From Candidatus Uhrbacteria bacterium (GTDB lineage: Bacteria > Patescibacteriota > Patescibacteriia > UBA9934 > GWF2-40-263), in NCBI GenBank assembly GCA_013204385.1, contig JABMNY010000003.1, forward strand, positions 14,270 to 78,269: a DNA stretch of 64,000 nt, read 5' to 3'. The position numbers and the translations under genes were made by a program. A model generated the notes under the pieces. It was given only the letters and a program-made list of their open reading frames with translations. It searched no databases and had not been told where the DNA came from. Below, piece after piece: positions 11,337-36,842 of this stretch. Numbering within the stretch: position 1 is the stretch's first letter; every line of letters starts with the position of its first letter.

Positions 11337-11465
11337 GAGACTTCTGAAAAAGTGATGGATTTTCGTTAAACGGGCTGCTGAGATCGTGAACCCTACTCAA
11401 ATGTAGGGAGAACGGAATCAGCGGGTGCCCGTGAGACGAAAAGACGCGCTTTTACAGAGGTCTCT
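11337..11465 (-). repeat. 129-nt element with ~10-15 nt terminal inverted repeats (copy A), filling rplJ-rplL intergenic space and abutting rplJ stop codon
   Basis: ~90% identical (as reverse complement) to 59843-59969; ends AGAGACYTCTG...CAGARGTCTC; internal hairpin CCCTAC-N6-GTAGGG. Confidence 0.6.
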
Positions 11466-18865: not shown

Positions 18866-18909
18866 ACACGCATTATAGCAGAGTCTTCTAAAATTTGGAG
18901 CATGTTGAG

Positions 18910-18939
18910 TTGACAATTTTGGCTATTTTCCCTAGATTA
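18910..18939 (+). promoter_or_regulatory. Near-consensus sigma70 promoter TTGACA-N17/18-TAGATT driving the E2/E1/Ubl operon
   Basis: ttgacaattttggctattttccctagatt; GGAG RBS ~6 nt before ATG at ~18985. Confidence 0.5.
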
Positions 18940-18984
18940 TGGAGTCCGAGTGAAATCGGAACGTTCTTTTACAACGGAGAACCC

Positions 18985-20406
18985 ATGCCCCAAAATACCG
19001 AGATCGATCAATTTCTCACGAGACCGCTTCACAAAGCGTTTCTTGTTCCAGAAGTCTATGGACTTGAACAAAGAGAAGCTCTCATCACAGCTGGATTCAA
19101 AACCAGCTTGAAGACTGCGCGCAGTGGTCACTTCGCTTTTCGTGCACTGTGCATTTACATCGGTCGTCGAGGAAACGCACGACTGCAACGATTGCAATCA
19201 GCCATCAAGATCATATTCGACTCGACCGATAAGCTCGCAAGCTTTGAAGGACGCATCGTTGATCAGATTCTGCCCATCATCGCTCCGAGCGATGTTACGG
19301 TCCATATTGATCAGACACAACGAAATGATTCGACTGGAAACGATCCGACGGAAAAAGCGCTAAACGCTTATCTTCCGATCCTGACACGATTGGCTCAGAT
19401 TTCCGGGCTCAGTGTGGAATTCCATGTTCCACAAAAAGAACGGCTTCACTCACCCCATGCATCCGACGGTGTGATCCATATCTACGCCAACGCCTGCCCA
19501 CCTGGAGAATATCAATCTTGGTATGTCGATACGGCATTTGGACTCACGATTGCTCCTGCATCAAAAGACCGGCCTGTCGGCTATGGCCCAACACAAGGAA
19601 GAGGAATTGTTCTGAAGGATGCAGATGAAAAAAATCTTGTTCAAATTCTCGAAGACACTTGGTACCTTCTCATTCCAACGCTTGGAATCTTCAATCCTTT
19701 GACGAGTGTCCAGATCTTCGAGCAATTGCTCGCGCTCGGTTGGGATGCGAAGCGCACGGGAAAGCCTACTGCCCAAAAACCTCTTCCGTGCACGAAATTT
19801 CTCCGAAAAGCTCGTACATGGATCGAACCGTTTGCGGATGGCGCTACGGAAAATGCACGCAACTGCGAAGAAGAGATCAAGCGATTGCATGCAAGGCTCG
19901 CAGAGAAAACGCGCGAACTCGTTCTCTGGAGAGGTATGGAAGAAGCTCTGAAAAAGACATCGTATTCTCGCGCAACCAAAAAACGGCTTCCAAAGGATCT
20001 TCAGATCATTCTCAATCTTCCGGATGTTGATCGCCTGGAACTCTTCGAGGATGCCATGCATGTGTGGACACGTCCTCTTGTCATCATTCATGAACTCGAG
20101 GCGTATCTCGCAGGAACTTTTGTTATTCGTCTCAACAAGGAAGGTGGTGTAACCGTGTGGAGTGAAGACTCCACCCATCCAGACGGGGTTCCTCATCCGC
20201 ATATCGCCAAGCATGGCGGTCCTTGCTTTGGAAACGCTGGAACAGCCATAGCTAAAGCTGGAGGAGAGGCGCGTTACGCAGATGCTGTAAAGCATGTCCT
20301 CACCTGGCTGATACTTGGTTACACACCAAATCTGGCAACAGTGAAAATTGAAGCATGGCCGAAAGTCCCAAGCATGGAGAACTCCGATGCAACCTCCCCC
20401 TCCTGA
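18985..20406 (+). CDS. 473-aa protein: uncharacterised N-terminal ~380 aa fused to C-terminal UBC/E2-like domain (HPH-x4-G-x-C)
   Basis: Start at MPQNTEIDQF (ORF track start 18895 is upstream alternative); C-terminal HPHIAKHGGPCFGNAG...LTWLILGYTPN resembles E2 catalytic core; GC above flanks. Confidence 0.6.
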   Translation: MPQNTEIDQFLTRPLHKAFLVPEVYGLEQREALITAGFKTSLKTARSGHFAFRALCIYIGRRGNARLQRLQSAIKIIFDSTDKLASFEGRIVDQILPIIAPSDVTVHIDQTQRNDSTGNDPTEKALNAYLPILTRLAQISGLSVEFHVPQKERLHSPHASDGVIHIYANACPPGEYQSWYVDTAFGLTIAPASKDRPVGYGPTQGRGIVLKDADEKNLVQILEDTWYLLIPTLGIFNPLTSVQIFEQLLALGWDAKRTGKPTAQKPLPCTKFLRKARTWIEPFADGATENARNCEEEIKRLHARLAEKTRELVLWRGMEEALKKTSYSRATKKRLPKDLQIILNLPDVDRLELFEDAMHVWTRPLVIIHELEAYLAGTFVIRLNKEGGVTVWSEDSTHPDGVPHPHIAKHGGPCFGNAGTAIAKAGGEARYADAVKHVLTWLILGYTPNLATVKIEAWPKVPSMENSDATSPS

Positions 20407-21052
20407 CCGTTCCATGAACTTTGATCAACAAGATGAGCTCTTTGATCCCGCACTTGCACGACCTGTTACCGTCATTGGTGCAGGGTCTGTTGGTGGTGAA
20501 GTGGTGGTCAAACTCTCTCAAATCGGAGCAGTGAATATCCAAGTTTGGGACAATGATGATGTAGCTTCACACAATATTCCTATGAGCGTCTATCGGATCA
20601 AGGACCTCGGTCGTTATAAAGTCGATGCTCTCAAGGAGATTGTAAGAGAAAAAAGTGGAATAGAGATCAGAACTCACCTGAAAAATTGGACGAGACAGCC
20701 CCTCAGGGATTCCGTCATTTGTTGTGTTGATTCCATGGATGTTCGTTGCGATGTCTGGGGGATCGTACGAGACAATCCACTCATCGATGTCTTCATTGAC
20801 ACACGGATCGCAAAAGAATTCGTCGTGGTCTATGCCATCAACCCCACAGACCCAGTACAGATCGCGTTTTACGAATCGCGATTGTACTCCTCAAGCGAAG
20901 CGGTAACGCCAACATGTGGAGACCATGGCATAACCTATGTCAGTAGTATCGCCGCCAGTGCAGCTATTGCACGATTGACGAATTCGTGGAAAGGCGGTAC
21001 AAATTCCCCACTATTTGAGATGTTGGTGGGTAACCTCCTTCAAATCACCTAG
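20387..21052 (+). CDS. ThiF/MoeB-type E1-like adenylyltransferase (short, no rhodanese domain)
   Basis: VTVIGAGSVGGEVVVKL (GxGxxG), VWDNDDVASHNIPMSVY, D..ICCVDS ThiF pattern; ATG at ~20387 has GGAG RBS and overlaps upstream gene by ~20 nt. Confidence 0.75.
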   Translation: MQPPPPDRSMNFDQQDELFDPALARPVTVIGAGSVGGEVVVKLSQIGAVNIQVWDNDDVASHNIPMSVYRIKDLGRYKVDALKEIVREKSGIEIRTHLKNWTRQPLRDSVICCVDSMDVRCDVWGIVRDNPLIDVFIDTRIAKEFVVVYAINPTDPVQIAFYESRLYSSSEAVTPTCGDHGITYVSSIAASAAIARLTNSWKGGTNSPLFEMLVGNLLQIT

Positions 21053-21090
21053 TTCATCATGAATCGATCAAAAAGTTGCAAGGAGCCCTA

Positions 21091-21339
21091 ATGTCAGCCA
21101 CAGTCACCGTACGAGTGGTTCCGCTAAGCGGAACCCCGACCGAAGTCACCGTACCATTCAAGAAGGGAATGACCGTCAATTCGGCGCTCACCGCCGCGGG
21201 GGTCTCGAGCGACAAGCGCGACCTCTCTGTCGAAGCGGCTCCGGGCCAGACCCTCAAGTCGGGTCAGACCGTCGTCGTCACGGATAAGGTCAAGGCCGGC
21301 GGGCAGGTCACTGTCCGCGAACGTCCACAGGGGTCCTGA
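21091..21339 (+). CDS. Small beta-grasp-sized protein (candidate ubiquitin-like/ThiS-like carrier) with internal GG followed by 11-aa C-terminal tail
   Basis: MSATVTVRVVPLSGTPTEVTVPFKKGMTVNSALTAAGV...TVVVTDKVKAGG|QVTVRERPQGS; AAGGAG RBS 5 nt upstream; ~60% GC. Confidence 0.5.
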   Translation: MSATVTVRVVPLSGTPTEVTVPFKKGMTVNSALTAAGVSSDKRDLSVEAAPGQTLKSGQTVVVTDKVKAGGQVTVRERPQGS

Positions 21340-21450
21340 CCCTACAACAACAAGAGTGCCGTCTCCGACACTCCGCTACGCCCCGACCCCTCATTGAGCG
21401 GTCGGTTTTATTTTTCCTTATTTGTCGGCGGCTCAGCCCCCGACCTGGTT
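21340..21450 (+). terminator. Intrinsic terminator (ccgacc-N11-ggtcgg + TTTTATTTTT) followed by conserved 34-nt module TTATTTGTCGGCGGCTCAGCCCCCGACCTGGTTG
   Basis: Module recurs as reverse complement at 35405-35452 downstream of the other high-GC orphan gene. Confidence 0.55.
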
Positions 21451-21464
21451 GGCTAAAACGTGTG

Positions 21465-22610
21465 TCATGGAAGATAGTTTGCGGGCTCGTACACATTTCG
21501 GGCATTCCACAGAATCCACCCACTTGCCCCGGCGTCACGTGCCGCTTGGATCTGTGCCTCGATCAATGTACTTGTGTACACTGCGCCAATGTCAAAATCT
21601 TGAAGCCATGGTCGCCAATGCGATCGCAGCTCCTCTTCGGTTCCCGAATACATTCCAAGCATCAAGTGTGTTCCTGAATCCAATGCCATTTTCACGATCT
21701 CATACGGATACAAAGCTGGATTTCCAAGTCCTTTAAATCCGTCTGGATAATGCGAGGGATACACCATGGGTGAAACCCAATCAGCAAAGGGAAAGACATC
21801 CGCTAAACGCTGACCGATATTATAATCATGATGGGACTCAAACGTCATGCCAAACACATCAAACGAAACAGGAATCCCTTCATCATGCATCGTCCCTCCC
21901 ACGGTTTGAAAAAATCTCTGCATCACTTCCACTTTTGTCTCGCGGTGATCATACACAGGATAGACAGTCGCGTTCACGGCGCCATCTGAAGCAAATCGCA
22001 CATAGTCATACTGAATCTCATCGAATCCCGCTTCGTAAAATCGTCGACCAAGTTCGATAGCGTAGTCTGAGACTTCTTGTGCGGAAGGATCCACCCAAAC
22101 CGATCCGATCGAATCAGTCCAATACCCTCCTCCTAACGAGCGCAGTGCCACACTTGGATGATCCCAAGCAAATGCTCCATCACGCATCACCGCGATGCGT
22201 GCGATCCGATAGATTCCTGCGTCCGCAAGACGCACCAATACTTCCCTAAAATCCTCGACCTCAAGCAGTTGTCCATTATCCATCTTCACATCAATCACTA
22301 CCGCGTTCAGCCCCGTCTCCAACATGTACTCAATCAATTGATCTGCACGTGCATTCGTTGCTGTCACAGCGGTCCAATAGATTCCACGCACTTCTTCTGG
22401 AAGAAGTACGTGCGAAGTAACTTCAACAGGGAATTCTTCTTCTACTCCCTCTTTTTCCTCAACCAGCAGTTCTTCAGGCTCTGTTTGTATCACGAGCTCA
22501 ACTTCTTTCTTTTGTTCCTGATGCATCAACATCCCGATACCCAACACAATCAAAAGCGCAGAAAACAAAAACACAGGGACGAGAAACTCGACCCTGTGTT
22601 TGGTATCCAT
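21465..22610 (-). CDS. Membrane-anchored TIM-barrel glycoside-hydrolase-like (GHL10/DUF4015-like) protein
   Basis: 381 aa; N-terminal TM; weak family recollection only. Confidence 0.45.
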   Translation of the reverse strand: MDTKHRVEFLVPVFLFSALLIVLGIGMLMHQEQKKEVELVIQTEPEELLVEEKEGVEEEFPVEVTSHVLLPEEVRGIYWTAVTATNARADQLIEYMLETGLNAVVIDVKMDNGQLLEVEDFREVLVRLADAGIYRIARIAVMRDGAFAWDHPSVALRSLGGGYWTDSIGSVWVDPSAQEVSDYAIELGRRFYEAGFDEIQYDYVRFASDGAVNATVYPVYDHRETKVEVMQRFFQTVGGTMHDEGIPVSFDVFGMTFESHHDYNIGQRLADVFPFADWVSPMVYPSHYPDGFKGLGNPALYPYEIVKMALDSGTHLMLGMYSGTEEELRSHWRPWLQDFDIGAVYTSTLIEAQIQAARDAGASGWILWNARNVYEPANYLP

Positions 22611-22611
22611 A

Positions 22612-23238
22612 TTATTGTGCGCGCTCTTCGACCGTAACGGTTGTCATGACATCTCCGACCATAATGGCATCCACGACATCCATTCCTTCAAGTACACGTC
22701 CAAAAATGGAGTAAGACTTTGGAAGTGGCACATCTCCTAACATGACAAAAAATTGCGAGCCATTTGTACTGGGTCCACGGTTTGCCATGGCGACAATTCC
22801 GCGCTCATACGTGTAATCATCTGTAAGCTCATCAGAGAATTCATAGCCTGGACCACCCGTCCCATTTCCAGCAGGATCTCCTCCTTGAATCACAAACCCC
22901 TCTTCACGTCGATGAAATTTCAGTCCAGTGTAGTATCCTCCTTCCGTTAAATATACAAAGTTAGAAACGGTCATTGGAGCCGTATCTGCAAAGAGTTCAA
23001 AAACGATATCTCCCTTTTCTGTTGAGATACGAATCTGTTTATTGGCAATCTGTTCTTCTGGAAGGGTTCCAGGAAAACTCCACGTTTGAGTTGATGTTTC
23101 GTCTTGCACAGAGTCTGGATAGCTAAAGGTGAGTGAAGATTCTTCTTGGGCAACTGGGGCACACCCAGCCCCCATTAACACGAGCGCGCTCAGAGAAATG
23201 AGTCCTAGATATTTCATAGAGTATATCCGCTGATCCAA
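22612..23238 (-). CDS. ppiB: Peptidyl-prolyl cis-trans isomerase, cyclophilin type, with signal/lipobox-like N-terminus
   Basis: FHRREEGFVIQGGDP...GIVAMANRGPSTNGSQFFVML cyclophilin signature. Confidence 0.9.
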   Translation of the reverse strand: MDQRIYSMKYLGLISLSALVLMGAGCAPVAQEESSLTFSYPDSVQDETSTQTWSFPGTLPEEQIANKQIRISTEKGDIVFELFADTAPMTVSNFVYLTEGGYYTGLKFHRREEGFVIQGGDPAGNGTGGPGYEFSDELTDDYTYERGIVAMANRGPSTNGSQFFVMLGDVPLPKSYSIFGRVLEGMDVVDAIMVGDVMTTVTVEERAQ

Positions 23239-23693
23239 TCTGTAAAACCACTCACAGAAAGAGATGGCATTTCGAAATTTCCGGGGAGTGCTGTTGAGAG
23301 CAAGAGACCAGAGAGAATCGCGATAGAGATAGAGAGGACTCCGATCAACTTATTTACCCCCATTGGCATGTGATCACAATTGCGACACGTTCCAAGAAAA
23401 ACGATTTTATGATGCACTTCTAATTTTGAACGAGATCCTGGTGCAGATTTTTCTATGATAGTCACTACAGGAACGGTCTCTTCTTCCACTTGAAATACCA
23501 GTTCAGGAGTTTTAGCTACGGGAGTTTTTTTTGCAACAGACTTTTTTGCAACAGGTTTCTTTTTTGCTCCTGCTTTTTTTGTTGTTGTTTTCTTGACGGC
23601 TGTTTTCTTTGAAACCGTTTTCTTTTTTGCAACAGGTTTCTTTACCTCCTTTGTGTTTGAAGCAGAGGAGGATGTTTTTGTTTTTGTTGGCAT
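23214..23693 (-). CDS. Lys/Ala/Pro-rich histone-H1-like N-terminal repeats fused to C-terminal TM helix
   Basis: KKPVAKKKTVSKKTAVKKTTTKKAGAKKKPVAKKSVAKK repeats; C-terminal LIGVLSISIAILSGLLL. Confidence 0.45.
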   Translation of the reverse strand: MPTKTKTSSSASNTKEVKKPVAKKKTVSKKTAVKKTTTKKAGAKKKPVAKKSVAKKTPVAKTPELVFQVEEETVPVVTIIEKSAPGSRSKLEVHHKIVFLGTCRNCDHMPMGVNKLIGVLSISIAILSGLLLSTALPGNFEMPSLSVSGFTDWISGYTL

Positions 23694-23788
23694 AGACTTC
23701 TCTCCTCACCGCTTGCACGGGAAGAATAAAGAACGTTAAGAAATTTTATTACTCACAGTATAACACACGTAAATACAGGATACCAAAC

Positions 23789-24268
23789 TTACTCAACAAG
23801 AACCCGTTCTCCCAATCCCACAAGAAGATTTCCCGCAAAACTTACCGGAGCAAAAAGTGTTTGTGTCTCAAGTACAAAAGATGTTGGGAGTGCCTCCCAA
23901 GAAAGTGTAGAACGATCAAATTGATAGACCACGACATCTTGAATCATGAGTCCTTCTTCTGTGAATTGATCGAATTCAAATGTGAGCTCCCCCTCCTGAA
24001 GGATCCCTCTCTGTGTAAACGCAAGTTCATACACGGGACTCACTGCGTGTTCAATATCTGTTGTCACTCCATCAAGACGTTCGATCACAATCACTCCTGA
24101 TTCACTTGTGACTCCTTCAAGTGAGACGATCCCGTCTTCTGAGCGTGCCTTTACTTCTTCAGGAGCAGGTCGTAGAAAAAGAAATGTACTTGCAATTAAA
24201 ACAATCGCGACCACCATCGCGACTGAAAAATTTGATTCTTTTTTTGAATTCTTACTTCCCATACCCAT
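23789..24268 (-). CDS. Hypothetical N-terminally anchored protein
   Basis: 159 aa; single TM near N-terminus. Confidence 0.4.
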   Translation of the reverse strand: MGMGSKNSKKESNFSVAMVVAIVLIASTFLFLRPAPEEVKARSEDGIVSLEGVTSESGVIVIERLDGVTTDIEHAVSPVYELAFTQRGILQEGELTFEFDQFTEEGLMIQDVVVYQFDRSTLSWEALPTSFVLETQTLFAPVSFAGNLLVGLGERVLVE

Positions 24269-24271
24269 TTA

Positions 24272-25327
24272 CTATATCACAAACGTTTCCTCCCACGGGA
24301 ACCCTTCTCGTCCAAAATGTCCGTAGGCAGCGGTTGCTCGATATACAGGCTGAAACAGATTTAACCGCTCTGTAATGGCTTCTGGTCGAAAATCAAATGT
24401 CTGCAAGAGTAGGTTTGTCAGATCTGTCTTGCTTCCTCGAGACTTCACTCCCATCCCAACTGCCTGAACATGCACAGGCTCTGCCCGACCCATCGAATAC
24501 ACAAGTGTAACCATCGCAGAGGCTACCAACCCCTGCTCCACCAAATAACGCGCCGCGTAGCGCGCCATGTACGCACCTGCACGGTCCACCTTACTTGGAT
24601 CCTTTCCAGAAAGAGATCTGTCTCCTTGTGGAATGAGCCCCCCATAGGTATCAACGGTAAGTTTGCGTCCAGACGCTCCTGAATCTGCACGGAATCCTGC
24701 ATCAATAAAAGATCCAATCGGATTGATAAAAATTTGCACGCCATCTTCTCCTACAATCGGAATCAAGAGACGCTCGAGCAACGCAGTCTTTACCTCTTTT
24801 TCTTCTATGCTCACTTGATGCGACGCAAGAACCGTCACAGAACTCACCTGTGCCCCATCCATGGTCAACTGAATTTTTCCGTCTGGTTTGAGCCAAGAAA
24901 ACATCGGATCACTTTTGCGTAGATCGTCCAGTCGTCTGGCAAGATTCTGTGCGTATACGACAGCGCGTGGCATGAGCTCGCGTGTTTCATTTGTGGCATA
25001 CCCGTTTACAACCATGTTGTCCGTCACGCCATTTGAGACGCGCTTCATTTCATCAGATTGCGTTTCGATATTCACGAACACTTCAATATCATCCTTATAC
25101 CCAATCTCTGCGTACACCTGGCGAGCAAGTGCTCCGATATCAAAGTCAGCCGTACTCGTCACCTCTCCACCAACCATCACCATCCCATGACTTCCTAATA
25201 CATTTACGTCCACGCGTGCCTGCGCGTCACGACGTAAATATTCATCCACAATGGCGTCTGCGATTTGATCACAGACTTTATCAGGCTGACCTTGAGTGAC
25301 AGATTCGACCGTTTTTTTCATACGCAA
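24272..25327 (-). CDS. metK: S-adenosylmethionine synthetase
   Basis: GQPDKVCDQIADAIVDEYL, GGGAFSGKD-like and C-terminal GHFGR motifs. Confidence 0.95.
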   Translation of the reverse strand: MRMKKTVESVTQGQPDKVCDQIADAIVDEYLRRDAQARVDVNVLGSHGMVMVGGEVTSTADFDIGALARQVYAEIGYKDDIEVFVNIETQSDEMKRVSNGVTDNMVVNGYATNETRELMPRAVVYAQNLARRLDDLRKSDPMFSWLKPDGKIQLTMDGAQVSSVTVLASHQVSIEEKEVKTALLERLLIPIVGEDGVQIFINPIGSFIDAGFRADSGASGRKLTVDTYGGLIPQGDRSLSGKDPSKVDRAGAYMARYAARYLVEQGLVASAMVTLVYSMGRAEPVHVQAVGMGVKSRGSKTDLTNLLLQTFDFRPEAITERLNLFQPVYRATAAYGHFGREGFPWEETFVI

Positions 25328-25459
25328 TGTTGCCTCAGGTTAACAAAATTTTGACCGCTTGTCATCGCATAGAGTGGGGATGAGTTCGGGATAATTGCCT
25401 GAACCCTTGATCTTTTTGTATTTCTAAGCTATGTTCTAGCGTTCTTTGGAGGATGGAAC

Positions 25460-26008
25460 ATGTTAGACACAGGAACTCTGCGACTTAAATTCATCGCTCT
25501 CATCAACCGAGGGTCTGATGGACTCGACTTGGGTGCAGGTGATGGCCGTTGGGCATTCGTCGCCTCAAGTAAACAAGCTCGTGTCACAGCCATTGACCGC
25601 CAACCATCACCAGATTCGCTTCCAATCGGAATGCGATGGATTCAAGCAGATGTGTGTAATGGTCTCTCAAGCTTCTTGGAATCAAACCATTCAGGTTTTG
25701 ACTTCATGATGTGCTGGAACCTCATTCAGTTCCTTCCCCACGACTACGTGACAGACAATCTGCTTCCAAGCCTCGCTCAGTACGCACGACCCAACTGTGT
25801 GCTGGGTCTACGGACATTCTGGCGCAACCCAATTCCCGGTTTTGCAAATCCTGTCCCCTCACTCTATAGAACCAATGAACTTGTCAGGAGTCTGAAGGGT
25901 TGGGACATCATTCACAAGGAAGAAATCGAAGGTGATGGCCCAAGTCTCGATGGGACAACCATGCGTCACTGGTATTTCACCGACATCATCGCTCGCTTCC
26001 CCTCATAG
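25460..26008 (+). CDS. Class I SAM-dependent methyltransferase
   Basis: motif I LDLGAGDGRWAFV; 182 aa; slightly elevated GC. Confidence 0.6.
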   Translation: MLDTGTLRLKFIALINRGSDGLDLGAGDGRWAFVASSKQARVTAIDRQPSPDSLPIGMRWIQADVCNGLSSFLESNHSGFDFMMCWNLIQFLPHDYVTDNLLPSLAQYARPNCVLGLRTFWRNPIPGFANPVPSLYRTNELVRSLKGWDIIHKEEIEGDGPSLDGTTMRHWYFTDIIARFPS

Positions 26009-26118
26009 AGATACTCTCCTCTCACACCTACCACTTGGTAGGTTTTTATATTGACAATCTCCTTCAAAATGTGTACCGTCAGCCTCCACTCCCTCCCCCA
26101 TCCTTATGGAGTTGAAAC

Positions 26119-26943
26119 ATGTTTGCTCTTCTCACACTTGCTTCACGAGCTGCTCAGATGGGTGGAAGATCTCTTGTAGACTTCCGTACGCGTGGTCTCT
26201 CCCTAGAGACCACGAAAAAGCCTGATGGCACGCTCGTCACAGAGGCAGACGCTCGAGCGTCTCGAATCATTCAACGGGTCTTGAAGGCTGGCGATCCTTA
26301 TGCATTCATCCTTGATGAGGAGGCTGTAAACACACATGACCTCGAGCGCCCTAAGTACTTCTGGATCGTGGATCCACTCGATGGAACAAGTGCGTTTATC
26401 GAAGGAGCCGACACCTTCTGTACAATGATCGCACGCATGCAAGGGAATATCCCTGTATTGGGAGTGATCTACTTCCCTGTGAGCAACACGCTCTTCTGGG
26501 GTGGGTACCGACAAGGTGCGTGGATGAAAGTCGGTGATCAACCAGCGAGAGAACTTTCTGGTCGACGCATCCAGCTCATGGAGCAGGTGCGTATGACCAC
26601 CCCCACAAAAGTTGTGACGCGCGCCCTTTTCATGCGCATCGCTCAATCGCTCAATGTTCAAGCGGTTGAGATCGACCAACCGTCTGGTGGTCTCTATACC
26701 GGCATACTCAACAATGGACATGACCTTGTTATCACTCGACCTGGTAGACCAGCCGTCTGGGATACCGCTGCAGGCCACGCCATCCTCCTTGCTGCTGGCG
26801 GGAAGATCGTCGATTTGCATGGCGACCCACTCAACTACCAAGAAGGCACTCACTTGAAATACGGATCCGTCGCCGTGATCGATCCGAGTCTTCTTCCTGT
26901 GATCCTGCACCAACTTCCTCCTCGCAACGAACTCATCCCTTGA
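26119..26943 (+). CDS. Inositol monophosphatase / CysQ-family 3'(2'),5'-bisphosphate nucleotidase
   Basis: WIVDPLDGTSAF, DEEAV.. metal-binding motifs. Confidence 0.8.
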   Translation: MFALLTLASRAAQMGGRSLVDFRTRGLSLETTKKPDGTLVTEADARASRIIQRVLKAGDPYAFILDEEAVNTHDLERPKYFWIVDPLDGTSAFIEGADTFCTMIARMQGNIPVLGVIYFPVSNTLFWGGYRQGAWMKVGDQPARELSGRRIQLMEQVRMTTPTKVVTRALFMRIAQSLNVQAVEIDQPSGGLYTGILNNGHDLVITRPGRPAVWDTAAGHAILLAAGGKIVDLHGDPLNYQEGTHLKYGSVAVIDPSLLPVILHQLPPRNELIP

Positions 26944-26947
26944 TGAA

Positions 26948-26985
26948 ACGCTCGCTCAGCCCACTTGGACTGAGCGTTTTTTATT
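26948..26985 (+). terminator. Intrinsic terminator after IMPase-family gene
   Basis: cgctcagcccacttggactgagcg + TTTTTTATT. Confidence 0.7.
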
Positions 26986-27042
26986 ATCCATCTTTGTCTC
27001 CCAACAACGATACAAAACGTGTGTGTGAAATTTTGGAGAAAT

Positions 27043-27224
27043 GGTGGTGGTCAAGGTATTGCAAGACTTGGCCTGGCTCCACCATTCGTCAGTAAATTCT
27101 CTCTCTTCTAGCAACACTCAACAGGGTGGAAATAAATTTAGGTGTGCCGGTGGTAGTCAAGATATTGTAAGACTTGGCCCGGTTCCGCCGAAGCACCTCA
27201 ATTTATTTCCACCCTGTTGAGTTA
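27043..27224. repeat. Two related ~41-nt hairpins (conserved loops TATTGYAAGA) with the second embedded in a 22-bp long-range inverted repeat
   Basis: ggtggtggtcaaggtattgcaagacttggcctggctccacc vs ggtggtagtcaagatattgtaagacttggcccggttccgcc; actcaacagggtggaaataaatt / aatttatttccaccctgttgagt. Confidence 0.5.
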
Positions 27225-27244
27225 TCCCCACCCCACCCCTTGCG

Positions 27245-27288
27245 TTCGGTTTTTGTTCGGTTCATAATACGAACATAAAGCGAACACC
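27245..27288. promoter_or_regulatory. 44-nt imperfect dyad (GTTCGG-N5-GTTCGG...CGAACA-N5-CGAACA) 15-55 nt upstream of lexA: candidate LexA autoregulatory operator(s)
   Basis: gttcggtttttgttcggttcataatacgaacataaagcgaaca; inner GTTC-N7-GAAC. Confidence 0.4.
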
Positions 27289-27302
27289 TAACGAGATACT
27301 GT

Positions 27303-27917
27303 ATGCCACAACTCACAAAAAAACAGTCAGCTGTGCTCGCGTTCATTCGCACACACATTGAAGAGAACGGGTATGCCCCCTCCTACAGAGAAATCGCTGA
27401 CGCATTCGGACTCTCTTCCCCCGCAACCATTCATGGCCATGTCCAGTCTCTCGTTGAAAAAGGACTTATCGTAAATGGAGATGATGGTGAAGCACGTTCA
27501 ATTGAACTCGTTCAAGAAGCCGCATCAGGATCCTCTATCCTTCTCCCCTTCATCGGACTCATTACCGCAGGAGAACCAATAGAAGCTGTCCAAGATAATG
27601 AAACGATGGCTGTCCCTGTAGACTTTGTTCTCGATGGTGCCAACTCATTTGTCTTACGTGTAAAAGGACGCTCCATGATTGAAGACGGAATTCTTGATGG
27701 AGACTATGTTGTCATCGAACGTAATCCTTCCCCACGTAACGGAGAGGTTGTCGTCGCACTTCTGGACAATGCCTTTGCAACGCTCAAGCGTTTTTACCGA
27801 GAGACAAATCGTATTCGTCTTCAACCAGCCAACAGCTCAATGGATCCAATCTACGTCCAAGACTGCATTATCCAAGGGGTGGTCCGAGCCGTCATCAGAA
27901 AGTTCCAACCCATCTAA
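27303..27917 (+). CDS. lexA: LexA repressor
   Basis: N-terminal wHTH; C-terminal S24 peptidase with Ala-Gly cleavage site region and Ser...Lys dyad (VKGRSM...ATLKR). Confidence 0.9.
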   Translation: MPQLTKKQSAVLAFIRTHIEENGYAPSYREIADAFGLSSPATIHGHVQSLVEKGLIVNGDDGEARSIELVQEAASGSSILLPFIGLITAGEPIEAVQDNETMAVPVDFVLDGANSFVLRVKGRSMIEDGILDGDYVVIERNPSPRNGEVVVALLDNAFATLKRFYRETNRIRLQPANSSMDPIYVQDCIIQGVVRAVIRKFQPI

Positions 27918-28380
27918 TAATAACATCCAACCGTCCTTAGACTCGCGAAGCTAAGGACGGTCACCAGCTGACAATTTGAGATCCCATGATGAGACGCGTA
28001 AGGGATCACGCGTCTGACCGTGGGATTTTAGTTTGCCAATTTTCAGAATCATCGAGGCTAAAGGTCTCGCTACAATACGCGGTAACAGAGAAGACGTTAT
28101 TCTGCTTCGCTCAGAATCGTCACGCTCGTGAAACCCTCATTGTGGCCTGACCTTCATCCTTTGATGAACCTGATCCCTTAATTCACTTACTCTTTACGTT
28201 CTATGTCTACCGCCACTACACTACGCCACCACTCCAACACATTCGCCTTCCTTCCACGACAACGGGATCAACGTTTCATCAAGAGTCTTCGTGCGATCAA
28301 AATCCGAACGAGTCGCCGAAAAATCAGACAAGTCATTCGTCAAATGATCGACCACCGATCACTTAGCACCATCTAATCCT

Positions 28381-28629
28381 ATGCACGAAATGCTTAACGA
28401 TCCTATAGACGTCACTGTCGCATTCAAAGATAATCGCGTCTTTCCACGCACCATGAGATGGAACGAACGTGACTACAAAATCGAAACCGTAAACCTTGTG
28501 CATACCGCTCGCGAAGGTCAAAAACGTATATTCTATTTCTCTGTGTCAGACACAACAAATTATTTCAAACTCAAACTCGACCCAGAAATGCTCGAATGGC
28601 GATTAGTCGAACTCTATACAGATGGATAA
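28381..28629 (+). CDS. Hypothetical 82-aa protein in SOS neighbourhood
   Basis: ORF only; no motif recognised. Confidence 0.4.
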   Translation: MHEMLNDPIDVTVAFKDNRVFPRTMRWNERDYKIETVNLVHTAREGQKRIFYFSVSDTTNYFKLKLDPEMLEWRLVELYTDG

Positions 28630-28650
28630 GAAAAAAGCACCTGATAGGTG

Positions 28651-29133
28651 CTAGCTGAGCGTATGTTCGAAATGAATGTTCGAACCTTTGACGGGTCTGA
28701 ACCCAAGCTTCTCGTAGAGGATTCGTGCCCCCTCACGTTCCTCCTCGGAAACGAGCTTGAGCAGAGAGATCTTTGGACGCACCTCCCCTGCCTGTTCGAT
28801 CAAATGTTCCATGACAGCGCGACCAAGCCCGCGACCTTCTCCGCGAAACTCAGGGTGCACCAGAACATATTCAACGTCCCCAACCCCCTTGCGCCAGTCG
28901 TAGCTGATCTTGAGCAAAGCAACAGCAACAATCTGTCGCGCACCTTTCTCTCGAATAATGCTAATGCGCGTTCGATTTGGATCCATGAGACGCGCCTGAA
29001 ACAGCGCGTCTTTGTAGTCGAGTGGACCCGACCGAAGCAGATCTTGCCCATGCTCATTCAGGAACGTTATGCAGTCTCGATAATCCCAGAGTTGAGCTTT
29101 CGAGTGAACAAATCGTTCTGGATCAAATGCCAT
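28651..29133 (-). CDS. GNAT-family N-acetyltransferase
   Basis: Start at MAFDPERF with GGAGGTG RBS; VHPEFRGEGRGLGRAVMEHLIE acetyl-CoA motif A. Confidence 0.75.
   Translation of the reverse strand: MAFDPERFVHSKAQLWDYRDCITFLNEHGQDLLRSGPLDYKDALFQARLMDPNRTRISIIREKGARQIVAVALLKISYDWRKGVGDVEYVLVHPEFRGEGRGLGRAVMEHLIEQAGEVRPKISLLKLVSEEEREGARILYEKLGFRPVKGSNIHFEHTLS
29106..29118. promoter_or_regulatory. GAAC-N5-GTTC palindrome ~65 nt upstream of dinB start: candidate Cheo-like SOS box
   Basis: gaacaaatcgttc. Confidence 0.35.
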
Positions 29134-29182
29134 GAGACACCTCCGTATACAAACCCTAACATTCCAGAGCACATCGTCAACT

Positions 29183-30388
29183 ATGCATCGCATCATCCTT
29201 CACATTGACATGAACTCGTACTTTGCCTCTGTAGAGCAACAGGCGAACCCTTTTTTGCGTGGAAAACCGATTGGGATTACAGGAAAAGACCAAGAGCGCT
29301 CCGTCGTCGCAACCGCCTCTATTGAAGCTAAGAAACTTGGGGTGAAGACCGCTATGTCTACCTGGGAAGCAAAGAAGATTTGCCCTTCACTTATTCTCTA
29401 TGCCGGCGACCCAGAAAAGTACTCAGACATCATGCATCGCTTCAACGCAATTTACCAGGAGTTCACTCCACATGTGGAACCATTCAGTGTAGATGAAAGT
29501 TTTTTAGATATAACAGAAGAGGCGGAAGATTTTTTTGGAGCGACGTATATGGCTCAAATGATCCGTACACGTCTTAAAGAAGAACTCGGGAATCACATCA
29601 CCGCCTCCATCGGTATTGCCCCAAACAAACTCATGGCAAAGCTTGCGTGTGAGACTGTGAAACCAAGTGGACTCACTGTTGTTCAACCAGAAGAACTTAT
29701 CGACTTGTTGAACCGTTGTAAACTTGATGACCTCTGCGGAATCGGTCCCCGTATTCTTAAACGTTTACACGCACTTGATATTAAAACATTCGCAGAACTA
29801 CGTGCATGCCCACTTGAGGATCTTCAACGTGAATTTAAGAGCTACGGTCTTTGGCTTCACGAAGCCGCTTACGGACGAGACTCTTCACAAGGAGTGAATG
29901 CGAATTCTTCAGACGCAAAATCTTACGGACATTCCTATACACTGCCAGAGAATACTCAAGATCAAACAGTACTCAAACGTTATCTCTTTGGACTCGCCGA
30001 CAAAGTTGGTTGGCGCATGCGTCGAGATGGAGTTGTTGCGCGTCGCATTACCGCCCATGTGCGGTTTGGAGATTTTACAAGTCATAGTGAACAACGAACG
30101 GTGAATACTCCAACAGCAGACGGCATGGATCTTTTTAAAATTTCCTGGAACATCGTAAAACCCCTACTCACAAGCGATGTACGTCTTGTCGGTCTCTCCG
30201 CCTCTATGCTTACAAAAAATCCTAGCCAACCGTCCCTATTCAAAAAAGAACGGAACATGCAGTCCGTCCTATGTGCGCTCGATTCTCTCCAACACCGCTA
30301 TGGCACAGGTGTCTGGAAACGAGGTGCAACACTCCCCCTCAACCTCAAACAACGCTCAAGCGGCTTCCATTTTGATCATGAAGTGTAG
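29183..30388 (+). CDS. dinB: DNA polymerase IV (Y-family)
   Basis: Start at MHRIILHIDMNSYFASVEQ; SVDESFLD catalytic motif. Confidence 0.9.
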   Translation: MHRIILHIDMNSYFASVEQQANPFLRGKPIGITGKDQERSVVATASIEAKKLGVKTAMSTWEAKKICPSLILYAGDPEKYSDIMHRFNAIYQEFTPHVEPFSVDESFLDITEEAEDFFGATYMAQMIRTRLKEELGNHITASIGIAPNKLMAKLACETVKPSGLTVVQPEELIDLLNRCKLDDLCGIGPRILKRLHALDIKTFAELRACPLEDLQREFKSYGLWLHEAAYGRDSSQGVNANSSDAKSYGHSYTLPENTQDQTVLKRYLFGLADKVGWRMRRDGVVARRITAHVRFGDFTSHSEQRTVNTPTADGMDLFKISWNIVKPLLTSDVRLVGLSASMLTKNPSQPSLFKKERNMQSVLCALDSLQHRYGTGVWKRGATLPLNLKQRSSGFHFDHEV

Positions 30389-30542
30389 AGAGTGAACTTA
30401 AGAAGTTCCTCTTCTTAAGTTCCGAACGAAGCGAAGTGATCTGTTCTACAGATCATGAAGTGTAGTGAGCGAGTTCATAAAGTTCCTCTTTATGAATTCC
30501 GAACGGAACGCCATGACTTGTTCTACAGATCATGAACTCTAG
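30374..30542. repeat. 2.2 tandem copies of a 77-bp unit beginning with the last 5 codons+stop of dinB (gatcatgaagtgtag), each unit carrying a 12-bp-stem hairpin with conserved TTCCTC loop
   Basis: Units at 30374, 30451, partial at 30528; stems gaacttaagaag/cttcttaagttc vs gagttcataaag/ctttatgaattc differ but stay complementary. Confidence 0.7.
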
Positions 30543-31093
30543 CCTCCAAACTCACCAATCACTTTATGCGTTCCTGGACCCGCGTCTCCGTCGTAGGCAT
30601 TTACCGTCACAATAATATGTCCATACCCCGAATAATCCTCTGTGTCTGGCGCCTGCCACTCAATCACAAAATATCCATCCTCGTCCGTGGTCATTTCCCC
30701 AAGAGAAAAGAACTCATACGGGAGTCGACGTAATAACCATACTTGATAATAATGCACCTCCCGATCAATCTCTGGGAGTGTCATTTTCATTTCCACGTAA
30801 TACTTGCCATCTTTTTCTCCTCGGCTCGCCGAGCCAACACGCGCATTTGATGATTTCCAATACAACTCCGCATCCCGACTCACTGTATCAATGGCTCCAT
30901 CAATCACCGCTTGCGAAATTGGATCTGGTTTCAACACGTCGACAATCGACGACACAACCTCTTCCTCAGGAATCGGCTCCGCCCGAAACCATTTCACCGC
31001 AATAATAAACACCAAAAACAACACGATCACAACGCCCACAGAACCAACTGCGGAGCTGACGCGGACTATTTTCTTATGCTGTTTTTGTCCCAT
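30539..31093 (-). CDS. Hypothetical N-terminally anchored protein
   Basis: 184 aa; TM VGSVGVVIVLFLVFIIAV. Confidence 0.45.
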   Translation of the reverse strand: MGQKQHKKIVRVSSAVGSVGVVIVLFLVFIIAVKWFRAEPIPEEEVVSSIVDVLKPDPISQAVIDGAIDTVSRDAELYWKSSNARVGSASRGEKDGKYYVEMKMTLPEIDREVHYYQVWLLRRLPYEFFSLGEMTTDEDGYFVIEWQAPDTEDYSGYGHIIVTVNAYDGDAGPGTHKVIGEFGG

Positions 31094-31096
31094 ATT

Positions 31097-32245
31097 CTAA
31101 GCTGCCTTCTTCACCGCTTCTGCCACAACGTCCGCAAGTCCAGGAACAAATGGAGAAGGCATAATTGTCTCGGCTGTTGGATCTGGAACCAGACCAGCTA
31201 ATGCATGCGCGGCAGCAACACGCATGGCGGGTGTAATCTTTCGTAGCCGTCCTTCAAGCGCCCCTTTGAAAATTCCAGGAAATGCTAAGACGTTATTTAC
31301 CTGATTTGGGAAATCTGATCGTCCTGTCGCAATAACAAACGCTCCCCCCTCCTTTGCAATGTCCGGCATAATCTCAGGAATAGGGTTCGAGAGCGCAAAG
31401 ATGATCGCTCTCGGTGCCATTGTTTGTACCATTTGTGCAGTGACAAGTCCTGGCTGGCTCACCCCAATAAAAACGTCTGCCCCAAGAAGCGCATCCTCTA
31501 ACGTTCCTGTGCGTCCTTCTGGATTAATCCGAGCAGCAAGCTCTTCTTTGTACGTGTTCATTCCTTCTCGACCAGGGGCAATGATTCCTTTTGAATCCAA
31601 CATAGCTAACTTCTGCATCCCTGCTTCAAACAATAAATGCGCGATCCCCATCCCTCCTGCACCAGCTCCAGAAATAACAACAGAAATATCTTCGATGTTC
31701 TTCCCAACCACTTTGAGTGCATTCAAAAGCCCAGCCAAAACCACCACAGCCGTTCCATGCTGATCGTCATGCATCACCGGAATATCAAGTTCTTCAATCA
31801 ACCGTCGCTCAACTTCAAAGCACGCCGGTGCAGCGATATCTTCAAGATTAATTCCTCCAAAACCTGGAGCAATGCGCTTTACCGTCTCGACAATCTCATC
31901 GACATCTTGTGTATTCAAACAAATGGGAAACGCATCGAGTCCTGCAAAGCGCTTAAACAAAATAGCTTTCCCTTCCATGACAGGAAGACCAGCTTCTGGT
32001 CCAATATTCCCAAGCCCAAGCACGGCAGACCCATCAGTTACAATGGCAACCGTATGTCCTTTCATGGTGAGATCCCAGGCACGCTCCTTATCTGCGGCGA
32101 TTACGCGACAAGGTTCCGCCACACCAGGGGTATAGGCGATTGAAAGATCCTCTTTCGTCTCAAGCGGAACACTCGACTTAATTTCAAGCTTTCCTCCATA
32201 CCGCTTATGCATGTCCAATGACGCAATATCGTAATTCATAATCAA
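31097..32245 (-). CDS. NAD(P)-dependent malic enzyme (short form)
   Basis: YTPGVAEPC, GAGAGGMGIA Rossmann motif. Confidence 0.9.
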   Translation of the reverse strand: MIMNYDIASLDMHKRYGGKLEIKSSVPLETKEDLSIAYTPGVAEPCRVIAADKERAWDLTMKGHTVAIVTDGSAVLGLGNIGPEAGLPVMEGKAILFKRFAGLDAFPICLNTQDVDEIVETVKRIAPGFGGINLEDIAAPACFEVERRLIEELDIPVMHDDQHGTAVVVLAGLLNALKVVGKNIEDISVVISGAGAGGMGIAHLLFEAGMQKLAMLDSKGIIAPGREGMNTYKEELAARINPEGRTGTLEDALLGADVFIGVSQPGLVTAQMVQTMAPRAIIFALSNPIPEIMPDIAKEGGAFVIATGRSDFPNQVNNVLAFPGIFKGALEGRLRKITPAMRVAAAHALAGLVPDPTAETIMPSPFVPGLADVVAEAVKKAA

Positions 32246-32251
32246 TAAGTG

Positions 32252-32815
32252 CTAATTGAAAATATCTGGTGGAAGTTTGTCTGGCCATCTTTTTGTCTCT
32301 CGAGCAATCGCAAATGCCCAAACGAGATGTCCAATGCGCACATTTCCTTTTTCAAACGGACAAATTTCCTGAAACTCTCTGCAAAACTCAGTCGGAGTCA
32401 TGCGATGAAGATTATTCTGATCAAGAGGCCCAGCCAATTCCTTTAAAAACCTCTTCATTAAGCGAGGAACTTCCTGAGCAGATGCTCTTCGATTTCCATT
32501 TGTAGCCTTGATTTCGCTTGTCCGATACCCTTTATTTTGTTTCTCAATGAATTCAGCCCACTTCAAAAGACATTCTTCCAGTTGATCCTTTGTGAGAGGA
32601 GCCCCTTCAATATACCCTGTCGCTAACTGTTTCGCCTCAAGATACGCTTGCGCGAACGCTTCTATTCTCGCACGTTCTACTGTGTCTTGATTTTCTGATT
32701 GCACAAGAATCAATTCTCTATCACACAGATCTAATCCGTCTGGAAAATGGACTGTGGAGTGCTGTTCGGCAGTTGAAACCGGTCCTTTATGATCATGCAT
32801 ATCAAAGTTCATCAA
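32252..32815 (-). CDS. Fic/DOC-family protein with degenerate Fic motif
   Basis: CPFEKGNVRIGHLV resembles HPFx[DE]GNGR. Confidence 0.55.
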   Translation of the reverse strand: MMNFDMHDHKGPVSTAEQHSTVHFPDGLDLCDRELILVQSENQDTVERARIEAFAQAYLEAKQLATGYIEGAPLTKDQLEECLLKWAEFIEKQNKGYRTSEIKATNGNRRASAQEVPRLMKRFLKELAGPLDQNNLHRMTPTEFCREFQEICPFEKGNVRIGHLVWAFAIARETKRWPDKLPPDIFN

Positions 32816-34904: not shown

Positions 34905-34912
34905 ACCCAGCA

Positions 34913-35336: not shown

Positions 35337-35398
35337 ATTCCTGGCTACCATAAATATGGACTCAATAAAGTTGTAATTTCGACTAACGACTTATCAAG

Positions 35399-35500
35399 AA
35401 AACTCAACCAGGTCGGGGGCTGAGCCGCCGACAAATTAGGGAAAATAAAAACCCTTCGCCAGAGCGAGGGGTGTGCGTTTAGTCCTGTATAGAGTCGGAT
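35399..35500 (-). terminator. Terminator (cccttcgcc-agag-cgaggg + U-tract) and conserved 34-nt module downstream of 441-aa gene
   Basis: reverse complement of module at 21404-21450. Confidence 0.5.
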
Positions 35501-35516: not shown

Positions 35517-36842
35517 TCACAGTGGAGCGCAGGCGAGTTTGAGCTCGGTCTGCATGGTCTTGAGATCAGGTCCCCCGTCGATGAGTTTCCTCATGAGTGC
35601 CTCGACGGCGAGGTGAATGCGCGGAAGGACACGTGGAAGGACGGGACGTTTGAACCCGTGTTCGAGCTTTCTCGCCGTACGTGGATCAACATGCGCAAGA
35701 CGGCGATGGATCGCGAGAAGTTCTTCTTTGTACATCAGTTGCTCGGATGCCCCGATGTCTTGTTTGCGATCTTCCAGAATTCCCACTTGGAGCAGGACCT
35801 CTTCAAGACGTCGGTGACAATCCATCTGAATCATCGCGCGATAGACGCGTCCGATGACATCCTTGGACTGGTCCACATATTGACCATCACTCGCAGTCGC
35901 AGCCTGACGCAGAAGTTGTGCCGCTTCATCGAGATCGTCCGCACAGCGATTGAACGAACGCGAGAACGGTCGGGAGACGATTGCTCGCAAGCGCTGTGCT
36001 TCGAACTCTATTTGACCAGCTTCCTTTCGAACAGAATTGGGAGTCCGTTTCAGAGGAACCAACCACTCCCCACGCAGACGATGCTCTTGACTTCGAGACA
36101 CATCACGCGAGATCTCGTGCAAGCGATCGATGTAGTGCTCAAGCACCACCTCGCGGAAACTCATCCGACGACCGATACCACGTACTGCTTGGATGCGCGA
36201 GGCAACCTTGTTCTCACCCGCAAAGCAGATGAGTGGAATCCGTCCTGGATTGAAACGACCGATTGAGTCGATCACAGAACCAGCTTGGAGCGTTCGCTGT
36301 TGAGCCATGACTTTCGTCTCGTCGATTGGCTTCCCGTATGCCTTGGCAGCACGCACCGCGATGAGCACGAACGACGATTGTCCTTCCTCATCGACCTTGC
36401 GCAATTCCCACGAGTATTTCATCAGCTCATCGAGTGTCCCCGCGAGCTTCTTGTTCGCCGGAATCTCGCGTGAGCGATATCGTCGATCAATCTTCCCAAG
36501 ACCACGACGCGCCTTGAAGACCCCATCGAATGACTGAAAGCACTGATCGACCTGGCTCTCGATAGGTCCGCCACTGAGACGTTCACTGACTTTCATATTT
36601 CGACTCAGGATACTTCCCGGCCGAAGTTCTCGAACATCTTTCGCCAACTCGTGACAGTCCATTGGGACTTCGTACAAGCAATGCGGAATAAGTTCGATGA
36701 GCTTGGCACCCGTAAGCACCAACGGCTCAATCTTGGGTTCGCCCTTTTTGCGACGACGACGATTCCGCAGAACCGTCAGGTCCCGGACGATGATTCTTGG
36801 CTCTTGTGGATCTGGCCACACGAACGAAAAAGGAACGGTCAC
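35517..36842 (-). CDS. 441-aa Arg-rich orphan protein, GTG start, no recognisable catalytic motif
   Basis: Longest ORF in a ~58% GC segment; AGGAGG-N5-GTG; own TTGACA-N17/18-TAATTT promoter and structured ~75-nt 5' UTR. Confidence 0.6.
   Translation of the reverse strand: MTVPFSFVWPDPQEPRIIVRDLTVLRNRRRRKKGEPKIEPLVLTGAKLIELIPHCLYEVPMDCHELAKDVRELRPGSILSRNMKVSERLSGGPIESQVDQCFQSFDGVFKARRGLGKIDRRYRSREIPANKKLAGTLDELMKYSWELRKVDEEGQSSFVLIAVRAAKAYGKPIDETKVMAQQRTLQAGSVIDSIGRFNPGRIPLICFAGENKVASRIQAVRGIGRRMSFREVVLEHYIDRLHEISRDVSRSQEHRLRGEWLVPLKRTPNSVRKEAGQIEFEAQRLRAIVSRPFSRSFNRCADDLDEAAQLLRQAATASDGQYVDQSKDVIGRVYRAMIQMDCHRRLEEVLLQVGILEDRKQDIGASEQLMYKEELLAIHRRLAHVDPRTARKLEHGFKRPVLPRVLPRIHLAVEALMRKLIDGGPDLKTMQTELKLACAPL

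Follow-up and report, generated by a model that had tools for sequence, protein, structure and literature searches.

In E. coli, the single-locus Y1/HUH gene of TnpA-REP (RAYT; 4ER8) is bracketed by inverted short GC-rich hairpins, and such hairpins (REPs, REP-BIMEs) are also scattered in extragenic spacers, often after gene ends. RAYT genes and their REPs are defined by inverted repeats bracketing a Y1 transposase gene (PMC5581495, PMC3733652), and the classical REP superfamilies are defined by a GTAG (or CGTC) head (PMC3733652). E. coli REPs affect mRNA decay (PMC3479197, PMC3733652). In Pseudomonas, the REPs form REPINs, inverted doublets that make a long hairpin, and the transposase locus looks vertically inherited with a flanking repeat that co-varies (Bertels and Rainey; PMC3116915, PMC5581495). 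In a literature search, no publication came up that connects REPs, REPINs or RAYTs to the Patescibacteria or the CPR.

Here we describe a hairpin module of a Candidatus Uhrbacteria bacterium that is very probably a REP of its host, with a cognate RAYT-type Y1/HUH tyrosine transposase encoded elsewhere in the genome. Like its E. coli counterpart, the Uhrbacteria transposase gene appears to occupy a single locus, between inverted hairpins, and the hairpin is found again in extragenic spacers, often after gene ends. Unlike the E. coli REP, which is an imperfect palindrome with bulges and has hundreds of copies, the Uhrbacteria REP has no GTAG head, its stem of 9 bp is almost perfectly palindromic and closes a 3-nt loop, a conserved tail of 8–20 nt starting CTGGTT lies on one side, and few copies are known, from partial genome sampling. 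As in the Pseudomonas REPIN-RAYT systems, the transposase locus has the look of vertical inheritance, the repeat beside it changes along with it, and doublets are present at some loci (L027, L028, L016, L019). However, the copies are mostly singlets or direct tandem doublets with a 43-nt period, the abundance is apparently one to two orders of magnitude lower, and the host belongs to the CPR. CPR genomes are roughly 1 Mb and extremely reduced. The CGTC-tagged REPs are likewise short palindromes with 8–9-bp stems and short unpaired tails, and some of their variants start with TGTC, which may be compared with T-GTCGG here; they differ in that GTC is an unpaired head rather than part of the stem, and in that they are without an associated transposase, whereas the Uhrbacteria family has one (PMC3733652).

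Two copies of a hairpin module in the window

The window, by which we mean the whole 64-kb stretch of DNA that was analysed, comes from a CPR/Patescibacteria bacterium of ~46% GC. Exact look-up of its proteins led to NCBI entries NQV898xx (Candidatus Uhrbacteria bacterium) and to JGI sample 3300032736. The initial annotation of the window held that two high-GC cargo units end with the same module, and the module was indeed recovered at both sites. The 34-mer TTATTTGTCGGCGGCTCAGCCCCCGACCTGGTTG lies at 21418-21451 (+) and its reverse complement, with one mismatch, at 35405-35438 (-); no match to the 34-mer occurred in 100 dinucleotide-preserving shuffles. A repeat finder extended the pair to 46 nt, 21406-21451 (+) and 35405-35450 (-), which are 96% complementary and 13,953 nt apart. 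The extended pair has an exact core of 31 nt and includes the T-rich run after each terminator, and no such pair is expected by chance. The second copy had been described as an exact reverse complement with a 2-nt variation in the A/T part, which is right for the 46-mer. The start that had been given for the site, 21404, precedes the 46-mer by ~2 nt and the 34-mer by 14 nt.

The core of the module is a 21-nt near-palindromic hairpin, GTCGGCGGCTCAGCCCCCGAC, with 8 bp around a C.C mismatch and a 3-nt loop; it contains the gtcgg-N11-ccgac hairpin that had been noted initially. As single-stranded DNA it folds with -6.5 kcal/mol (top strand) and -9.5 kcal/mol (bottom strand). A T-rich stretch precedes the hairpin and a CTGGTTG tail follows it. 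Copy 1 (21406..21458, plus strand) consists of a T-rich left flank (21406-21423), the hairpin (21424-21444) and the tail CTGGTTGGCTAAAAC (21445-21459). Copy 2 (35389..35450) is inverted and lies on the minus strand, with the hairpin at 35412-35432, the T-rich flank at 35433-35450 and the tail CTGGTTGAGTTTTCTTG from 35411 down to 35395. A covariance model of the family, searched against the 64-kb window, detected copies 1 and 2 only (53.1 and 45.9 bits); besides the same two sites on the opposite strand, the next matches had E>1.

Both copies are located in convergent spacers, and each follows a terminator-like hairpin with a T-run. After the Ubl-like ORF, CCGACC-N11-GGTCGG with its T-run occupies 21383..21415 on the plus strand (hairpin 21383-21405) and lies outside the conserved REP core. 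After the 441-aa ORF, CCCCTCGC-TCTG-GCGAAGGG, which has one mismatch, occupies 35442..35471 on the minus strand together with its T-run (hairpin 35452-35471). The two terminator-like stems are unlike each other, as had been stated before. Neither was flagged by a simple terminator scan because one has a long loop and the other an internal mismatch. The module hairpin itself, examined as an intrinsic terminator, has no T-run on either strand; it is followed by CTGGTTG on one strand and by AAATAAGG on the other.

The unit before copy 1 encodes a 503-aa protein without family match (18895-20406, +), a 234-aa ThiF/E1-like adenylyltransferase (20348-21052, +) and, as its last gene, an 87-aa Ubl-like ORF (21076..21339, +), 84 nt downstream of which the hairpin of copy 1 is found. 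PADLOC, Pfam and NCBIfam searches gave no family for the 503-aa and 87-aa proteins, the latter having a sub-threshold match to DUF7601 (E 0.009), and the ThiF-like protein gave weak sub-threshold matches to PADLOC E1-E2 and NCBIfam 6A-MBL cap2_3. The operon (18895-21339) is possibly a minimal ubiquitin-like conjugation or defence module. A DUF4015 glycosyl-hydrolase-like gene (21465..22610, -) converges with this unit. Its stop codon is 20 nt from the hairpin and the REP would therefore fall in the DUF4015 3' UTR on the minus strand, where it may also influence how stable the 3' end of the mRNA is. The hairpin of copy 2 is 84 nt downstream of the stop codon of the 441-aa ORF (35517..36842, -), for which no Pfam, NCBIfam or PADLOC match was obtained. 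The 90%-identity cluster of this ORF has two members, both from assemblies of the Uhrbacteria host. The description of both units as high-GC applies to the Ubl ORF (0.63) and the 441-aa ORF (0.545) relative to the window mean of 0.46, but less so to the entire Ubl unit (0.50). The other genes of the window are ordinary bacterial genes, among them a UvrD-type helicase, MltG/YceG, a PPIase and the DUF4015 gene.

The initial annotation proposed that the module could be a cassette-like recombination site or the end of a common vehicle that delivered both units, and suggested a comparison with integron attC. attC sites are imperfect palindromes of 57-141 nt with the layout R''(RYYYAAC)-L'' ... L'-R'(GTTRRRY) and extrahelical bases, and integron cassettes are arrayed in one orientation beside intI/attI. 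The module resembles attC as a structured recombination-type sequence 3' of genes; both copies directly follow the two highest-GC units of the region, and GTTGAGT in copy 2 fits the R' consensus. However, the comparison fails on length and site architecture, since a single 21-nt hairpin stands against paired R''/L'' and L'/R' sites, GTTGGCT in copy 1 misfits GTTRRRY, and a partner R'' site is lacking. The array organisation differs too: the copies point in opposite directions, 14 kb of DNA with housekeeping genes (PPIase, UvrD and others) separates them, direct-repeat target duplications are missing, and the module is absent on the 5' sides of the units. The associated enzyme is also of another kind, as copies of the module flank a Y1 transposase gene and no integrase was seen among the annotated neighbour genes. 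Together with copies after housekeeping genes in this and related genomes, these observations make a cassette site or a vehicle end highly improbable.

Another reading takes the two copies as terminal inverted repeats that bound a single 14-kb composite transposon (21424-35432), since they are inverted, face inward and start with TGT. The interior, however, consists of core genes (DUF4015, PPIase, UvrD helicase) and contains no transposase. There are no target-site duplications, the outer flanks are inverted copies of each other, and the same 40-nt module occurs in many genomes as singlets with unrelated flanks. A composite transposon is improbable in the extreme.

Searches for other kinds of element in the window were negative. 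Rfam gave nothing relevant, either for the whole window at gathering thresholds or around the module at E<=1. A tRNA scan of the window found no tRNA genes and therefore no tRNA-linked attachment site. Megablast of 18-38 kb against a phage database gave no match, and a scan of viral contigs for the hairpin found none.

Other repeats in the window

Four further repeats were observed. A 129-nt element is present twice in inverted orientation (11337-11465 and 59841-59969, 91% identical). Each copy is a long near-perfect hairpin with the ends GAGACCTCTG...CAGAGGTCTC and an RNA fold of -71 kcal/mol (z = -10); Rfam gave no match for it at E<=1. The element may represent another repeat family of the MITE or REPIN kind, or else a structured RNA. 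A 56-nt direct repeat (35279-35334 and 61666-61721, 84% identical, ..CCCACC..GGTGGGTTTT) looks like a shared terminator module, and one of its copies shares a spacer with REP copy 2, at a distance of ~70 nt. Two tandem 77-nt units (30374-30527, 77% identical), each with an internal inverted repeat such as AACTTAAGAAG..CTTCTTAAGTT, lie in the convergent spacer after a 418-aa ORF. Finally, an intergenic 38-nt inverted repeat (87%) with a 31-nt spacer is found at 27116-27222.

The hairpin flanks a transposase gene that very probably belongs to the host

The identification of the module as a REP is based on the presence of an identical hairpin on the flanks of the host's RAYT-type transposase gene. 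This gene was found on L033 (Logan contig SRR28106091_207407) and encodes P0007, a 221-aa Y1/HUH transposase named 'transposase [Candidatus Uhrbacteria bacterium]' at NCBI. L033 starts with TGTCGGCGGCTCAGCCCCCGACCTGGTTGACTAAAAC, which is the window's hairpin variant GTCGGCGGCTCAGCCCCCGAC plus CTGGTTG with the C.C mismatch included. This first REP is 68 nt upstream of the P0007 start codon, and its inverted partner GTCGGCGGCTGAGCCGCCGAC begins 7 nt after the P0007 stop codon. The hairpin and CTGGTTG are identical to those of copy 1, and the copy 1 tail CTGGTTGGCTAAAAC matches the tail upstream of P0007, CTGGTTGACTAAAAC, at 14/15 positions. The initial suspicion that the repeated module is tied to mobile DNA was borne out.

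L033 very likely comes from the organism of the window, as judged from sequence records. The sequencing run SRR28106091 also yielded the window's 441-aa and DUF4015 genes in exact-sequence look-ups, the names and sources match (NCBI 'Candidatus Uhrbacteria'), and the C.C hairpin variant is unique, with no further copy in scans of genome and metagenome collections. tblastn for the RAYT, SerRS or kinase gave no match in the window, and the RAYT locus is therefore elsewhere in the genome.

Exact-protein look-ups added ~2.2 kb beyond the window on one side, where a third dispersed copy is located ~200 nt past the window's right end (L035 2889-2943). It follows a dCMP-deaminase-family gene and its terminator, and a 17-nt tail (L035 2880-2896) is the tail CTGGTTGAGTTTTCTTG of copy 2. 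In total, 5 copies are known in ~75 kb sampled of this genome, two in the window, one on L035 and two at the RAYT gene. The region around the L035 copy (2889-2960, ~window 64196-64270) has a perfect stem with tails on both sides, CAACCAG-hairpin-CTGGTTA, and adjoins a terminator with the arms CCGACC/GGTCGG, which are also the arms of the copy 1 terminator. Because these arms resemble the foot of the REP stem, there is a hint that some 'terminators' here derive from REP halves. Four Logan contigs of SRR28106091 (L026, L032, L033 and L036) start or finish within or next to a REP copy, a pattern to be expected of a repeat that exceeds the assembler's k-mer in length.

Orthologous transposase loci

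A homology search with the transposase gave 1,495 relatives. Some of these have names: several entries are annotated as transposases from Uhrbacteria or Patescibacteria, and one from JGI is called 'REP element-mobilizing transposase RayT'. Orthologues are 48-76% identical to P0007. On L015, two inverted copies of the repeat with their tails inward bracket a 226-aa gene that matches Pfam Y1_Tnp (IS200-like transposase). Its product is 61% identical to P0007, and its best NCBIfam match is REP-associated tyrosine transposase, below the curated cut-off.

The order seryl-tRNA synthetase, transposase, Ser/Thr kinase is maintained on the Patescibacteria contigs L015, L027, L028, L029 and L034. L033 shows the kinase side only because the contig begins at the upstream REP. 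This synteny, on five contigs and on the kinase side of a sixth, argues for vertical descent of the transposase. No second copy of the transposase gene was present in any locus sequence examined, the loci being seen as contig fragments.

The hairpins beside the gene change with the orthologue. Inverted REP copies are present on both sides of the gene on L033, L015, L027 and L029, hairpins adjoin it on L028, and on L034 it is flanked by a different hairpin. The flanking hairpins are GTCGGACATTAAATGTCCGAC on L027, GTCGTAAGCTCCGCTTACGAC on L028, (A/G)TCGGAAGCGAAGCTTCCGCC on L029 and CTACGGAAGTCTAGCTTCCGTA on L034. Their stems vary among orthologues by compensatory changes, and the tail CTGGTTGACGAAAGT is conserved in the closer relatives.

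The predicted fold of the enzyme is closest to a RAYT

P0007 matches Pfam Y1_Tnp with E=4e-10, and Y1_Tnp matches 17/18 of the aligned members. No sequence in the 18-member alignment departs from the HxH motif (H79 and H81 in P0007) or from the Tyr of YIHxN (Y139). In NCBIfam a single model matched, REP_Tyr_transpos; P0007 scored 51.1 bits and the L015 protein 30.7 bits, both below the curated cut-off of 80. An AlphaFold model of P0007 (pLDDT 89, pTM 0.87) was compared with the PDB by Foldseek. The top match was 4ER8, the E. coli 'REP associated tyrosine transposase bound to a REP hairpin' (E 1e-6, target TM 0.65), with the TnpA of IS608 and ISDra2 ranking below. A sequence-profile search of the PDB gave weak matches to ISDra2 TnpA, and 4ER8 was reached by the fold search. 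The predicted fold thus fits the E. coli RAYT best. Unlike the E. coli RAYT, the Uhrbacteria enzyme, at ~220 aa, is longer, has a conserved C-terminal extension (~75 aa, with a W-S-S motif) and scores below the NCBIfam cut-off.

The repeat is a dispersed family

Degenerate hairpin patterns were scanned against genome and metagenome collections. Matches were obtained in the Patescibacteria MAG FW215_bin.11 (5 copies on 4 contigs), one Uhrbacteria MAG, several JGI Ga-series contigs and a few others. A MAG labelled 'Gammaproteobacteria' also gave matches, and one of its two contigs is 99.9% identical to the contig of the Uhrbacteria MAG. Matches in Burkholderiales (L001), Aeromonas (L009) and L023 were discarded as probable chance matches in GC-rich sequence, having no conserved tail and no similarity past the pattern. 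The oriented family consensus is T-GTCGGnnGCTwAGCnnCCGAC-CTGGTTGAmGAAAATGnACTT, with unrelated outer flanks. The family alignment contains no GTAG head; its conserved flanks are the T before the stem and CTGGTT after it.

Pairing in the stem was examined in 26 distinct instances. In these, 97% of the cells pair and 5/9 pairs change on both sides, with compensatory changes such as TG..CA, AA..TT and ACATT..AATGT, while the base in the middle of the loop varies freely among A, T and C. The covariation score was reached by 0/500 shuffles, and slid controls pair at 20-42%. T precedes the stem in 20/26 instances and many copies come after a T-run; a preference in targeting or cleavage may lie behind this.

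Every copy assigned to the family is intergenic. The copies are mostly in 3' spacers, many of them directly after a terminator hairpin and T-run, and their orientation relative to neighbouring genes varies. Copies whose context was checked with Pfam lie after FolD (L017), after the NuoC/D fusion NuoCD (L003), as a tandem doublet in the spacer from Sua5/TsaC to RsmA (L019), upstream of lexA (L020), before an ECF sigma factor gene (L008) and between EngA and a LytR-family gene (L010); a further copy adjoins tRNA-Pro (L006). The module is therefore not specific to high-GC cargo. In this genome it follows the dCMP-deaminase-family gene and lies near the stop codon of the housekeeping-like DUF4015 gene, and in related genomes it is found at FolD, NuoCD, TsaC/RsmA and lexA; a frequent occurrence downstream of ordinary housekeeping genes had been named at the outset as the observation that would speak against a cargo-specific module. 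Between the REP and the lexA start on L020 (~9540-9620, Ga0082335_1001609), GTTCGGTTTTTGTTC contains a GTTC-N7-GTTC direct repeat, which we take to resemble an SOS box of the alphaproteobacterial type and to be a candidate LexA operator.

The tails of the dispersed copies are of two kinds. Type A contains TTGAC(G/T), and type B contains the complement of the last codons of the transposase gene. They suggest that REP units were copied from either side of the gene. At the master copy, the type A TTGAC(G/T) is 17 nt before a TGTAyT-like hexamer, and the two may form a candidate promoter of the transposase gene. A promoter, sigma-70 or sigma-54-like, was rejected as a general function of the tail, since the tails of many copies face away from the neighbouring genes or run antisense to them, and both copies in the window are in convergent spacers; the -35-like hexamer is plausible only at RAYT-proximal master copies. 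A DnaA box, TTATCCACA after the tail, was likewise rejected, being present in a subset only (L007, L011 and L012).

The sole serious alternative to a REP-RAYT pair is that the transposase and its hairpins form an active autonomous insertion sequence of the IS200/IS605 type, with the solitary hairpins as MITE-like units or end remnants. The protein is a member of the Y1_Tnp family and scores under the curated RAYT threshold, and many dispersed copies carry 15-25 nt of transposase-proximal sequence (the putative promoter -35 in type A, the last codons in type B) that can be read as remnants of ends. The enzyme superfamily and, with DNA-hairpin recognition, the presumed chemistry are shared with IS608 and ISDra2. 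The ends of these elements lie on the same strand and are not inverted. Unlike IS200/IS605 elements, which have two different same-strand hairpins, are multi-copy and move as a whole, the Uhrbacteria gene has the same chromosomal position in orthologues that are 48-76% identical to P0007, and its flanking hairpins are inverted and near-identical on both sides. In addition, no second gene copy was found in any locus examined, and the closest fold is the RAYT structure 4ER8. The autonomous element is disfavoured and we consider it quite unlikely.

A second possibility is that the hairpin is a functional element of the host (a 3'-UTR RNA stabiliser, a terminator helper or an operator for a dimeric DNA-binding protein) and is next to the transposase gene by coincidence. 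Conservation of the stem by compensatory changes, the prevalence of 3' spacers, the module upstream of lexA on L020 and the known effect of E. coli REPs on mRNA decay (PMC3479197, PMC3733652) are in keeping with such a role. But at many loci the hairpin comes after the terminator, and so it is often outside the transcript, and no T-run follows it on either strand. It has both orientations relative to its neighbours, as well as tandem doublets, and the neighbouring genes have no function in common. Moreover, in four genomes or more (L033, L015, L027 and L029) the transposase gene lies between inverted copies, the hairpin sequence changes with each orthologue, L034 having a different hairpin, and Rfam contains no match. 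A host element with incidental transposase adjacency is very unlikely. The REP-RAYT reading draws on the bracketing hairpins, the intergenic dispersal, a stem that evolves in step with the enzyme orthologue and the conserved position of the gene.

Proposed mechanism and significance

By analogy with E. coli TnpA-REP and IS608 TnpA, we infer that the transposase mobilises the REPs. In single-stranded DNA the enzyme would bind the 9-bp hairpin, and the cutting and rejoining of the DNA beside the hairpin would depend on the HUH motif and the catalytic tyrosine of the enzyme. Cutting and rejoining would copy or move the hairpin together with a short adjacent tail, which starts with CTGGTT and at the master copy would run into the apparent -35 of the transposase gene's promoter. 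The window copies are probably dispersed REP singlets of the ordinary kind, which came to lie in two convergent 3' spacers. That they are found beside the high-GC units would reflect where REPs are tolerated or targeted, in T-rich tracts after terminators, with no shared vehicle.

Both high-GC units have terminators with T-runs, sites that many REP copies follow. The location of both window copies beside two compositionally odd units may be due to chance, there being ~8 convergent spacers in the window, or to a shared preference for strong terminators. For the adjacency to the two most deviant units, a terminator or T-run preference is all that the REP-RAYT model offers. Copies 1 and 2 and the third copy all follow a terminator. 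A stronger version, with an active part for the REPs in these very small genomes, is that REPs insert specifically into the T-rich tract after intrinsic terminators and that such spacers are hotspots for the capture or retention of foreign higher-GC genes (the Ubl/E1 unit, the 441-aa ORF), or that the insertions, since they bring along the -35-like portion of the RAYT promoter (TTGACG/TTGACT), seed an outward partial promoter. We regard this version as unlikely.

One orthologue already bears the name RayT in automated JGI annotation. What is new is a REP-RAYT system without a GTAG/CGTC head, with an apparently low copy number and in a CPR host. A tempting reading as integron-like cassettes in a CPR genome is replaced by a documented mechanism, and the REP explains assembly breaks in these MAGs. 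The short hairpin and its enzyme also make a compact, sequence-defined pair for biochemistry. In Uhrbacteria and related Patescibacteria, the locus of the REP-RAYT pair is constant and the hairpins evolve together with the enzyme, which bears on the debate whether or not RAYTs and REPs are maintained as host-beneficial partners. If the hotspot or partial-promoter reading were true, the pair would be an organiser of gene gain or of transcription boundaries in CPR bacteria.
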